A DNA stretch of 64,000 nt from Minisyncoccota bacterium (lineage in GTDB: Bacteria; Patescibacteriota; Minisyncoccia; Phycocordibacterales; SBAW01): NCBI GenBank assembly GCA_035546615.1, contig DASZWM010000003.1, positions 32,001 to 96,000 of the forward strand, given 5' to 3'. Within the stretch, counting starts at the first letter, position 1. Every line of letters starts with the position of its first letter. The notes under the pieces were generated by a model that was given only the letters and a program-made list of their open reading frames with translations, had not been told where the DNA came from and did not search any database. This document shows, one piece after another, positions 3,147 to 59,934 of the stretch. The position numbers were made by a program, and so were the translations under genes.

Positions 3147-4850
3147 TTAGTAGTCCATGTCGTCTCCGCCCATTCCTCCCATGCCTCCCTGCATGCCGGG
3201 GCTTCCCTTTTCTTCCTTCGGCTCCTCCGCTATCACCGCTTCGGTCGTCAACAGCATTGCCGCCGCGGATGCCGCGCGCTCCAGGCCCGTGCGCGCCACC
3301 TTGACCGGGTCAATGATGCCGGCCGCTATCATATCGGGCACCACTTCGTTCTTGACCGCGTCGTAGCCGGCGTTCCCGCTTGCCTCGCGCACCTTCTCCA
3401 CGACCACGCCCGGGTCCACGCCCGCGTTCATGGCTATCTGGCGGAGCGGCTGCTCAAGCGCCTTGATGATTATTTCGTAGCCCACGCGCTCTTCGTGGCT
3501 CATACTCGTGAGCGAAGACTCCACGACCGGCGCGATGGAGCCGCGGCGCGGCTTTATCTTGGCGAACCCTTCCACTACCTTTTGTGCCGCCTTCACGAGC
3601 GACGTGCCGCCGCCCGGAACGATACCCTCCTCAATGGCTGCCTTGGTCGCATTGACCGCGTCCTCGATCTTCAGCTTCAAATACTTCATTTCGGTCTCGG
3701 TCGCCGCGCCCACGCGGATGACAGCAACGCCGCCGGACAACTTTGCCAGGCGCTCGTTGAACTTCTCCTTGTCGAACTTGGAGTCGGTCGATTCTACCTG
3801 CGCGCGTATTTGCGCAATGCGCGCATCGATGTCTTTCTTGGCGCCCTTGCCGCCGACTATCACCGTCGAGTCCTTTGTTGCAATAACCTTGCCGGCCTTG
3901 CCAAGCATGCCAAGCGTCGCATTCTCGAACTTGACGCCGGTCTTCTCTGAAATCAGCTCGCCGCCGGTCATGATGGCGATGTCTTCGAGCATTTCCTGCT
4001 TGCGGTCGCCGTAGCCCGGCGCCTTTATCGCCAGCACGTTGAACGAGCCGCGCAGCTTGTTGAGGATAAATGTGGAGAGCGCTTCGCCGTCCACGTCGTC
4101 GGCCACGATGACCAAGTCCTTCTTGCCGGACTCCGCTACCTTCTGGAGTATCGGGAGCACTTCCTGCACGCTCGATATCTTTTTGTCGGTAATCAGTATC
4201 GGCGCGTCCTTATATACGGCTTCCATGCGGCTGGCGTCGGTCACCATGTAGGCGGACACGTAGCCGCGGTCGAACTCGAGGCCCTCTACGACCTCCTTTT
4301 CGATGCCGAGGCTCTGCGACTCTTCCACCGTCACTACGCCGTCCTTCCCCACTTCTTTAATAGTGTCGGCAATTATTGCGCCGATTTCCGCGGACTCCGC
4401 GGAAATGGTCGCGACCTGGCGTATCTCGTCGTCGTTTTGGATCTTCTTGGCAAGGCCGCGCAACGCGGCAACGGCATCGGCGGCAGCCTTCTCGATGCCG
4501 GCGCGCACGCCCATGGCATTCAGGCCCGCTTCCGTGTGCTTCATGCCTTCCTCGACTATCGCCTGAAGGAGCACGACGGAGGTCGTAGTGCCGTCGCCCG
4601 CGATGTCGTTGGTGCGGCTTGCCACTTCCTTCACTATCTCGGCGCCCATATTCTCGAACTTGTTGCTGAAAGATATCTCCTTGGCGATGGAAACGCCGTC
4701 GTTGGTGATGGTGGGGCTTCCGTAGCCCTTGTCCAGGGCGACGTTGCGGCCGCGGGGGCCGAGCGTTATCTTCACCGCGTTCGCGGCCTTGTCGATGCCT
4801 GCCTTCAGCGTCCGGCGCGCGCGCTCGTTAAAAAGGATTTGCTTTGCCAT
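3147..4850 (-). CDS. groL: Chaperonin GroEL (60 kDa)
   Basis: Full-length match to GroEL ([12 protein letters not shown], ...), C-terminal GGM repeats, and groES immediately upstream. Confidence 0.98.
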
Positions 4851-57015: not shown

Positions 57016-57091
57016 TGGAGCCGGAGGCCAGGATTGAACTGGCGACCCCGTCTTTACGAAAGACGTGCTCTACCAACTGAGCTACTCCGGC
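57016..57091 (-). tRNA. tRNA-Thr (anticodon CGT), CCA encoded
   Basis: GCCGGAGTAGCTCAGTTGGTAGAGCACGTCTTTCGTAAAGACGGGGTCGCCAGTTCAATCCTGGCCTCCGGCTCCA. Confidence 0.85.
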
Positions 57092-57113
57092 AAAGGAAGT
57101 CAAAGAAAATCTA

Positions 57114-57554
57114 TCATATAAGCAAACGGGCGGCAATCGCTCTTTTACTTATTGCGCGCCCTTTTCTGCCGTTTCCTTTATTGAGATTAGCATAAGTAGG
57201 ACTTAATGCGTCACAGTTCGGACAAACTAGTCTAAGATTTTCTTCTGTATTATTCTGCCAATTACCATCGATATGGTCCGCAACTAACGGCACAAGTCCG
57301 GTAACCGGATTAACTTCCGACCAACCGCACATACAACACTTATCGCCAAACTTTTCTCGCAGATAACGCTTGACCGGCCTTGAGACTATCCCCGTTACCT
57401 TTAGTCCTGTTATCTTTCCCTCTTTCCACTTTTTGATATAAGATTCGTGCTGCAATTGTGCCTGGCACTTGTTACTGCAATAGGTGTATCCAGCGCGAGC
57501 AGTCTCTGTACCACACAGAACACACGCGCTACGTGGTTTTTTAGGCATCGACAT
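57114..57554 (-). CDS. HNH endonuclease
   Basis: N-terminal Zn-ribbon (CVLCG...C..C) and an HNH core DHIDGNWQNNTEENLRLVCPNCD. ATG at 57554 or 57548 (the track has TTG at 57575). Confidence 0.8.
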   Translation of the reverse strand: MSMPKKPRSACVLCGTETARAGYTYCSNKCQAQLQHESYIKKWKEGKITGLKVTGIVSRPVKRYLREKFGDKCCMCGWSEVNPVTGLVPLVADHIDGNWQNNTEENLRLVCPNCDALSPTYANLNKGNGRKGRAISKRAIAARLLI

Positions 57555-57627
57555 ACCTACAAGAAGTATATGCAAACTGCTTATCGGTGTAAATAATTAC
57601 ATCGGAAGCAATTTACAGCATATTTTG

Positions 57628-57880
57628 AGCCGAAGGCCGGAATCGAACCGGCGACCTACTCCTTCGCTTACACCTCTTTTTTCTTTATAAGAGGGCTAGA
57701 CTGTATCTTTCTCCTGCGAACAGGAGACCCTTGTCAGTCGTTCGAGCGTCTAGGACGCTACGGTCTGGACCAGTCATGTGGCCTTTAACCGTTATTCGGG
57801 ATTCATTCCGACGTTACCGTCGGGATGGGCGGGGTCTGCGACCCACCATGGAGTTGCTCTACCATCTGAGCTACTTCGGC
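57628..57880 (-). tRNA. tRNA-Thr (anticodon GGT) interrupted by a ~180-nt intervening sequence in the anticodon loop
   Basis: The 5' half GCCGAAGTAGCTCAGATGGTAGAGCAACTCCATGGT lies at 57880..57845. The 3' half AAGGAGTAGGTCGCCGGTTCGATTCCGGCCTTCGGCT lies at 57664..57628. The acceptor, anticodon and T stems all pair across the insertion. Confidence 0.55.
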
Positions 57881-58017
57881 TTATTGTACTGAGTCCCGAC
57901 GCTTTGGTCGGGAGGCCGACTGACACGTCGGCCCTACTTCGGCTTATACAAGAACATCTATCAACTTACAATAAAAACGGCAAAATTGCCAAAAAATATA
58001 GGCGGTATACTGGTGGC

Positions 58018-59615: not shown

Positions 59616-59687
59616 CGCGGGGTGGAGCAGTAGTAGCTCGCAAGGCTCATAACCTTGAGGTCGCAGGTGCAAGTCCTGCCCCCGCAA
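59616..59687 (+). tRNA. Initiator tRNA-fMet (anticodon CAT, C1-A72 mismatch)
   Basis: CGCGGGGTGGAGCAGTAGTAGCTCGCAAGGCTCATAACCTTGAGGTCGCAGGTGCAAGTCCTGCCCCCGCAA. The unpaired 1-72 position is the initiator hallmark. Confidence 0.75.
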
Positions 59688-59688
59688 C

Positions 59689-59731
59689 AAGCCAAAAGTA
59701 AGACACCCCTTCGGGGGTGTCTTACTTTTGC
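59689..59731. terminator. Bidirectional intrinsic terminator
   Basis: AAAAGTAAGACACCCC-TTCG-GGGGTGTCTTACTTTTG, a 14-bp stem with a UUCG loop. Confidence 0.7.
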
Positions 59732-59934
59732 TGCTTTTGCGAGGGAAAGAAGCGAACTGCTTCGCTTCTGGCAGGACTTGCAGGCCGGAGCGCGACCTCA
59801 TTTTCTTAGAGGTATTCCTCTTAGAAAATGGAAGTACTCCTGTGGTGTTGTTTTGCACTTGCAAAACCGCGAGGCCGGGCTGCAGCCGAGCCGAGTGACG
59901 ACGAGGCGAGAGCGAAGGCCAAGCCTATTCTCCC

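Follow-up and report, generated by a model that had tools for sequence, protein, structure and literature searches.

The stretch of DNA analyzed here (the window) comprises 64,000 nucleotides (nt) of a Minisyncoccota bacterium genome (contig DASZWM010000003.1 of assembly GCA_035546615.1, positions 32,001 to 96,000) and carries, on its minus strand, a small open reading frame (ORF) for an HNH endonuclease, flanked by tRNA-Thr(CGT) on one side and by an intron-split tRNA-Thr(GGT) on the other. Our results suggest that this ORF is probably a free-standing, selfish, homing-type endonuclease gene specialized on the flanks of tRNA-Thr genes, an assessment that draws on comparative sequence analysis. 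An earlier note on the window had placed the nuclease between the same two tRNA genes, both of which are confirmed, and had suggested, as an alternative to a mobile intron with its nuclease, a selfish element inserted independently into a cluster of tRNA genes. That alternative fits best, and we refine it to a family specific to tRNA-Thr.

The 146-amino-acid product is identical to database protein P0001, which comes from a 157-kb contig and is named "HNH endonuclease [Candidatus Paceibacterota bacterium]" by NCBI, and has 1,534 database relatives at E <= 1e-3, so the ORF is not a product of chance. An alignment of the window protein with 38 relatives (39 homologues) supports the ATG at 57554, within the motif M-x-M-P-K-K-P-R, as the start codon and not the TTG at 57575. 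The N-terminal Cys4 ribbon described in the earlier note is borne out by C11, C14, C26, and C30, which are invariant in the 39 homologues, as are the residues of the HNH core (C73, C76, D93-H94, N106, and C111-P-N113-C114); the alignment thus contains a pair of zinc sites, both invariant (C11/C14/C26/C30 and C73/C76/C111/C114), together with the catalytic motif D93-H94...N106...N113. The Pfam models HNH_3 (E value, 8e-4) and HNH (0.027) both match under the cut-off, while PHROG phrog_1271 ("HNH endonuclease") matches residues 8 to 128 with an E value of 6e-15, and the best PADLOC model is "homing endonuclease" (2e-10). The last two matches point to a free-standing HNH enzyme of the homing-endonuclease kind, as had been proposed. 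The AlphaFold2 model (mean predicted local distance difference test score, 83) has strands at residues 91 to 94 and 107 to 110, followed by a helix at 112 to 115. The invariant motif, the PHROG match, and the predicted fold together argue for membership of the HNH/His-Me finger endonuclease superfamily. A search of PDB sequences with the HNH protein gave no match, and Foldseek against PDB returned weak matches to the HNH core alone (DotN, Cas9 HNH, and McrA; E > 0.1), which are uninformative on function.

Genomes and metagenomes yielded 96 homologue loci. The close clade, about 58 to 77% identical, comes from the candidate phyla radiation (CPR; Patescibacteria), and in 65 of the 67 CPR-clade loci with enough flank a co-oriented tRNA-Thr(CGT) is found just downstream of the HNH gene, within 150 nt, the median gap from the end of the protein match to the tRNA being 11 nt. 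The upstream neighbor, scored in 56 CPR loci, is tRNA-Gly(CCC) in 17, an intron-containing tRNA-Thr(GGT) in 8, an intronless tRNA-Thr(GGT) in 5, and another in 2, with no co-oriented tRNA called within 1.5 kb in 24; no co-oriented tRNA-Thr(GGT) was called within 1.5 kb upstream in 41 of these loci. Among distant bacterial homologues (48 to 57% identical; metagenome contigs, including a Gammaproteobacteria metagenome-assembled genome [MAG] and a Clostridia MAG), 14 of 20 adjoin tRNA-Thr, mostly tRNA-Thr(UGU) and often between thrU and tyrU. Phage relatives (35 to 57% identical) are located in tRNA clusters; in IMG/VR, 18 of 47 phage-contig loci have Thr as their nearest tRNA, compared with a background of 11% (p = 1.6e-6), and the best INPHARED match is an ORF that overlaps tRNA-Thr(UGU) by 9 nt in Enterococcus phage iF6 (L110, MT909815.1, 41103 to 41519). 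Judged by these neighborhoods, the HNH family is tied to tRNA-Thr loci and not to the intron. The iF6 homologue is full length, with 44.6% identity, and is unannotated in the phage record, where the tRNA strands in the feature table conflict with ARAGORN calls.

A further feature was seen upstream of the HNH promoter. A decayed, uncalled 5' half of a tRNA (GCCGgaGTAGCTCAgtGGtAGAGCA plus a stem strand) is present there in 9 of 67 loci, compared with 1 of 222 control segments. It lies about 76 to 90 nt upstream of the HNH ATG in L001, L017, L022, L023, L026, L029, L038, and L043, and it also occurs in L013. The halves end in or just after the anticodon loop, and L013 retains TTCGTAA. These remnants suggest that a tRNA-Thr gene was broken, or received an insertion, in the region of its anticodon loop.

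The closest relatives of the window organism, sampled via PrfB (76 to 87% identical), provided nine distinct loci with DNA, and both the HNH gene (tblastn, E <= 1) and the intron are absent from all nine. Seven of them have tRNA-Thr(GGT) and tRNA-Thr(CGT) in tandem, 6 to 61 nt apart and in the same synteny, and those without the tandem pair have tRNA-Thr(CGT) alone. What is a 6- to 61-nt spacer in these relatives is filled in the window by a cassette of about 530 bp, composed of the ORF and its own promoter. A larger island or a defense system was rejected as an explanation, since synteny is intact on both sides and the extra DNA consists of the 530 bp and the intron alone. The HNH gene is present and absent sporadically at a fixed site, as homing genes are.

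The composition and the relationships of the gene also set it apart from its hosts. The GC content at third codon positions (GC3) is 0.41 in the HNH gene versus 0.73 to 0.85 in prfB, ftsE, ftsX, and other neighboring ORFs. Across 29 loci, the pairwise identities of HNH show no correlation with those of PrfB (Spearman, 0.04), and in 93% of the pairs PrfB is the less conserved of the two; the most similar HNH protein (76%) resides in a host whose PrfB is just 59 to 61% identical. Host-independent horizontal spread, as known for homing genes, would produce this pattern. The window tRNA-Thr(CGT) allele is 100% identical to the allele beside a truncated HNH gene in L068 (PrfB about 61% identical over the 80 amino acids available) versus 78 to 90% identical to those of HNH-less close relatives, which hints that part of tRNA-Thr(CGT) travels with the cassette by co-conversion. 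About seven HNH copies are decayed, by an early stop (L065), by the substitution H94Y (L007), by N-terminal truncations (L068 and L077), or by stops in the tail. The in-frame stops in L012, L057, L058, and L065 have conserved sequence beyond them; we read them as decay, the alternative being stop-codon recoding in some CPR lineages. Taken together, the evidence fits a homing endonuclease gene with its cycle of invasion and decay and not a vertically inherited housekeeping gene, and in the window the HNH gene looks recently gained.

The split tRNA next to this gene is absent from the default ARAGORN and Rfam calls; with introns allowed, ARAGORN calls a minus-strand tRNA at 57627..57880 with a 180-nt insert as Arg(GCG). 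The exons joined at T36/A37 are 100% identical to the uninterrupted tRNA-Thr(GGT) of the close relatives L097 and L098, which sets the intron boundaries at 57844..57665. The Arg(GCG) reading was rejected on the grounds that the exons are those of tRNA-Thr(GGT) in relatives and that the U(-1)/terminal-G rule is satisfied. RF00028 gives no match to the intron even at E <= 10 because the intron is divergent; covariation and a custom model settle its identity. When the window intron was aligned with eight homologous introns from other loci (RNAalifold, with P3 added by hand), all nine folded into helices P1 (which has the U36-G wobble) to P9, with the P3/P7 pseudoknot among them. Of the cells in this structure, 98.5% are paired, versus 28 to 46% in slid controls, and compensatory changes are seen in 21 of 46 pairs. 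The U36-G wobble and the terminal G are found in 9/9 introns, J8/7 is AAGAUACAGUC, and the covariance model built from the nine scores 192.6 bits on the window intron. On these structural grounds, the insert is a genuine divergent group I intron, in agreement with the earlier note, which had taken it for an intron. Divergent group I introns at position 36/37 of tRNA-Thr(GGU) in Patescibacteria are known to escape RF00028 and to be miscalled as Arg(GCG) by ARAGORN (PMC13011429), and the family has been reported by Castelle et al. 2018 and Nakagawa et al. 2026 (PMC13011429). The window intron is a member of this family, with the same tRNA, the same site, the same RF00028 failure, and the same miscall. 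The latest survey found these introns to be without endonuclease genes, inferred limited mobility from this, and does not mention a neighboring free-standing HNH gene (PMC13011429).

The 36/37 tRNA-Thr(GGU) intron family occurs within about 1.4 kb of the HNH gene in 11 of about 109 HNH-bearing bacterial loci versus 0 of 11 HNH-less loci. The 11 loci, identified with the covariance model, are the nine used for building it plus L066 and L091; no phage locus gave a comparable score, the one other match being weak (17.7 bits, L118). Among loci with an adjacent tRNA-Thr(GGT), the intron is present in 10 of 18 with the HNH gene versus 0 of 7 without it (Fisher p = 0.02, not phylogenetically corrected). 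The CPR-type intron of L066 (1630 to 1929) is in a tRNA-Thr(GGU) 563 nt downstream of the HNH gene, and that of L091 (877 to 1155), also in tRNA-Thr(GGU), is on the strand opposite to the HNH gene; L076 has the same exons as L091 and lacks the intron. Unrelated, canonical group I introns were found in L016 (Clostridia MAG, 3622 to 3929; RF00028, 45.9 bits), at 36/37 of a tRNA-Thr(UGU) located 71 nt upstream of an HNH gene with 48% identity, and in L151 (phage contig, 2910 to 3185), in a tRNA-Thr(UGU) 34 nt downstream of a phage HNH homologue. Introns in adjacent tRNA-Thr genes recur in three HNH clades, and the link between nuclease and intron is therefore non-random. To this extent the proposal of the earlier note that their juxtaposition supports a mobile intron holds, but the conserved partner of the HNH gene is tRNA-Thr(CGT), with the intron present in just 8 of 56 CPR loci.

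This raises the possibility of collaborative (trans) homing, in which the HNH enzyme cuts intronless tRNA-Thr at 36/37 for an intron that has no homing endonuclease gene of its own, both spread together, and the intron protects the carrier allele. The window harbors both elements, and its closest relatives lack the HNH gene at all nine loci and the intron in their seven tRNA-Thr(GGT) genes. The enrichment among loci with an adjacent tRNA-Thr(GGT), the restriction of the intron family to HNH-bearing bacterial loci, the two other intron lineages beside distant HNH homologues, the identical exons with and without an intron in L091 and L076, and the 5' tRNA halves broken in or after the anticodon loop before the cassette also favor this explanation, as does a background frequency of just about 3 in 95 complete Patescibacteria genomes for the intron (PMC13011429). 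We nevertheless regard it as rather unlikely. The HNH gene occurs without the intron in 48 of 56 CPR loci, and an intact HNH gene stands beside an intronless tRNA-Thr(GGT) with the same anticodon arm as the window exons in L027 (the nearest HNH-bearing relative), L108, and L002. Similarity among introns tracks that among hosts (Mantel r = 0.49, p = 0.014) and is uncorrelated with HNH similarity (r = -0.10); the similarity of HNH proteins matches that of neither hosts nor introns. Given this lack of correlation, we rejected a strict co-transfer of the HNH gene with the intron. The window intron has a host-like GC content (0.53), and the composition of the HNH gene is not host-like, which suggests different residence times. 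The co-occurrence of HNH gene and intron is enriched but not consistent, and on these comparisons the intron is a frequent but optional companion whose history is decoupled from that of the nuclease.

The way in which the HNH gene is expressed may be linked to the adjacent tRNA. The putative promoter found by scanning matches at 10 of 12 positions, and its box ends 10 nt before the ATG, a position that implies a nearly leaderless mRNA; the transcript probably continues into tRNA-Thr(CGT) as well. At homologue loci the corresponding position is taken by an equivalent TTGACA..TATACT/TATAAT box, whose -10 box is just 6 to 10 nt from the HNH ATG, so that a leaderless mRNA is implied there too, and usually an inverted repeat, ACCAC..GTGGT, surrounds the -35 box. 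This repeat (ACGACCACTT..TTGACA..AGTGGTCGT) lies about 25 to 65 nt upstream of the HNH ATG (e.g., in L006, L007, and L010), is weaker in the window (CGATGTAA..TTACACCG), and could function as an autoregulatory operator. The stop codon of the HNH gene is, at 43 of 66 CPR-clade loci, the TAG at positions 8 to 10 of tRNA-Thr(CGT) (the conserved U8-A9-G10), with no spacer, so that the acceptor stem encodes the last three HNH codons (e.g., L001, 4436 to 4456, and L108, 1357 to 1366). At such loci, RNase P cleavage would yield a non-stop mRNA. The window HNH gene is in the minority, with a TGA of its own 22 nt upstream of tRNA-Thr(CGT), the distance also given in the earlier note.

We propose that the nuclease would cut cassette-free tRNA-Thr loci, in or near the tRNA-Thr gene, and that the break would be repaired from a cassette-bearing copy, with the conserved flanking tRNA sequences serving as homology arms. 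The cassette, often together with part of tRNA-Thr(CGT), could be copied in during this repair. Expression would be driven by the gene's own near-leaderless promoter, with a transcript extending into tRNA-Thr(CGT), and in most members tRNA processing by RNase P would remove the TAG stop at positions 8 to 10 and keep the level of the nuclease low, the window gene with its TGA being an exception. The intron in the upstream tRNA-Thr(GGT) would be a separate element with a more vertical history; its co-occurrence with the HNH gene above chance likely reflects exploitation of the same locus by both, and possibly the 36/37 intron is occasionally co-converted or protects the tRNA gene.

Several observations weigh against this proposal. 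Neither the downstream tRNA-Thr(CGT) nor the upstream intronless tRNA-Thr(GGT) of carriers has obvious immunity substitutions that would protect carriers from self-cleavage, or a diagnostic position; the HNH-less L104 and the HNH-bearing L002 have an identical anticodon arm. The family is unusually conserved for a selfish gene (mean identity of 67%, above that of PrfB), and this could also be compatible with a function beneficial to the host. All HNH copies are AT-rich whatever the GC content of the host, so the low GC3 may partly reflect constraint and not recent transfer, and the HNH-less comparison set represents one narrow clade.

A broader combination of the evidence is possible, and we put it forward only tentatively: a homing system specific to tRNA-Thr that carries a replacement tRNA-Thr(CGT) segment, whose expression is gated by tRNA processing through a stop codon made of the universally conserved U8-A9-G10, and which may supply the mobility or retention factor that the "endonuclease-less" divergent group I introns in tRNA-Thr genes of Patescibacteria are missing, acting via breaks in the anticodon-loop region, where 36/37 introns insert and the decayed 5' halves end.

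A domesticated host gene in the service of the tRNA-Thr(CGT) locus, such as a leader ORF or a regulator supplying a promoter, that is inherited vertically and repeatedly lost, would explain the very tight, co-oriented, often overlapping linkage to one tRNA gene, the conserved promoter with its possible operator around -35, and the high sequence conservation. It is quite improbable in view of the absence of the gene from the nine closest relatives, where the same tRNAs are expressed with no HNH gene, its foreign GC3, the lack of HNH-host co-phylogeny, the decayed HNH copies beside intact tRNAs, and the homologues in phage tRNA clusters. A defense or restriction HNH protein (McrA-like or an anti-phage effector) that landed in the tRNA cluster by accident is hardly credible: the similarity to ZorE, IscB, and McrA models or structures that speaks for it is weak and limited to the HNH motif, NCBIfam and PADLOC defense-family scores are far under the family cut-offs, neither full-length similarity nor partner genes were found, the cassette being one ORF flanked by two tRNAs where synteny is otherwise conserved, the top PADLOC model is the homing one, and the clustering with McrA-type or housekeeping HNH proteins that the earlier note had named as the refuting outcome was not seen.

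The features of the locus are listed in Table 1. The earlier note had put the nuclease 53 nt from the split tRNA; this distance applies to a start at TTG 57575, and from the supported ATG at 57554 the gap to 57628 is 73 nt.

Table 1. Features of the tRNA-Thr/HNH locus in the window, in minus-strand order
Feature	Position	Strand	Remarks
tRNA-Met, tRNA-Asp			First in minus-strand order at the locus
Iron-permease-like ORF		+	Between tRNA-Asp and the split tRNA
Split tRNA	57880..57628	-	
5' exon of tRNA-Thr(GGT)	57845..57880	-	Positions 1 to 36, U36 last; ARAGORN with introns allowed; equals the 5' part of L097/L098 tRNA-Thr(GGT)
Divergent group I intron, 180 nt	57665..57844	-	Insertion at 36/37; follows U36, terminal G
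3' exon of tRNA-Thr(GGT)	57628..57664	-	A37 to the discriminator base; equals the 3' part of L097/L098 tRNA-Thr(GGT)
Sigma-70-like promoter of the HNH gene	57565..57593	-	TTTACA-17 nt-TATACT; promoter scan, putative function
Free-standing zinc-ribbon + HNH endonuclease gene	57114..57554	-	146 amino acids; TGA stop at 57114-57116
Spacer from HNH stop codon to tRNA-Thr(CGT)	57092..57113	-	22 nt; read directly from the sequence
tRNA-Thr(CGT)	57016..57091	-	ARAGORN and Rfam
prfB, ftsE, ftsX			After tRNA-Thr(CGT) in minus-strand order

At the 5' end of the split tRNA on the minus strand there is a perfect 14-nt direct repeat, ATAAGCCGAAGTAG (57871-57884 and 57934-57947), which contains the first 10 nt of the split tRNA and flanks an insert of about 50 nt with two hairpins. 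The motif CCGAC-N6-GTCGG occurs in three copies in the window, against 0.07 expected, and these are the same two hairpins and the P2 hairpin of the intron. L097 and L098 have the upstream sequence and lack the insert of about 50 nt. The repeat and the insert may be a scar left by recombination, or by an insertion, where the tRNA has its 5' end. Directly after tRNA-Met, Rfam gives a match below threshold to the D1-D4 model of group II introns (59661-59795, plus strand; 21.2 bits versus a gathering score of 49, E = 0.07), which is probably due to chance.

Free-standing endonuclease genes in phage tRNA clusters offer the nearest parallels. Phage T5 has small free-standing HNH genes within its tRNA clusters, F-TflI/II/IV, hegA, hegC, and hegD, which are described as site-specific endonucleases and for which tRNA processing has been proposed to limit expression (PMC2330249). 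The T5 ORFs abut or overlap the next tRNA, and hegC and hegD overlap downstream tRNAs, as ORFs of the window family often do. However, the match of hegA to the window protein covers the HNH core alone (residues 88 to 127, E = 2e-10), and the window gene, unlike those of T5, is in a bacterial chromosome and belongs to a family with a strong preference for tRNA-Thr. Phage T4 SegB is likewise encoded by a free-standing homing endonuclease gene between tRNA genes, and it drives preferential inheritance of the tRNA region (PMC2330249). As the downstream tRNA matures, the segB transcript is cut after its last sense codon and before the stop codon, and a regulatory reading of the stop/tRNA arrangement has been proposed for segB and the F-Tfl genes (PMC2330249). 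SegB differs from the window protein in being a GIY-YIG enzyme and the product of a phage gene. The cyanophage F-CphI/psbA intron and T4 mobE/I-TevIII intron pairs resemble the window in that a free-standing nuclease gene lies beside a gene with an intron, and their group I introns are without a functional endonuclease gene (PMC2790892, PMC3984707). There, the nuclease cuts at the site of intron insertion or close to it, and the two elements move together, whereas most members of the window family have no nearby intron and the two histories are decoupled.

Both the intron family and the occurrence of free-standing endonuclease genes in phage (T4 and T5) tRNA clusters are already known. Our literature search found no report of this chromosomal HNH family linked to tRNA-Thr, none that connects it with the tRNA-Thr intron of CPR bacteria, and none of a chromosomal family of this size, which counts more than 1,500 sequence clusters from CPR bacteria, has relatives in phages and in other phyla, and is tied to one tRNA identity. 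The HNH family is apparently widespread and undescribed in ultra-small bacteria, in other bacteria, and in phages. If our reading is correct, it would provide a testable candidate for the exchange of tRNA-Thr loci and introns among ultra-small bacteria and add a set of compact (about 146 amino acids), sequence-specific nucleases. It would also mean that tRNA genes can serve as portable homology arms and would present a natural case in which the expression of a nuclease is coupled to the maturation of a tRNA.

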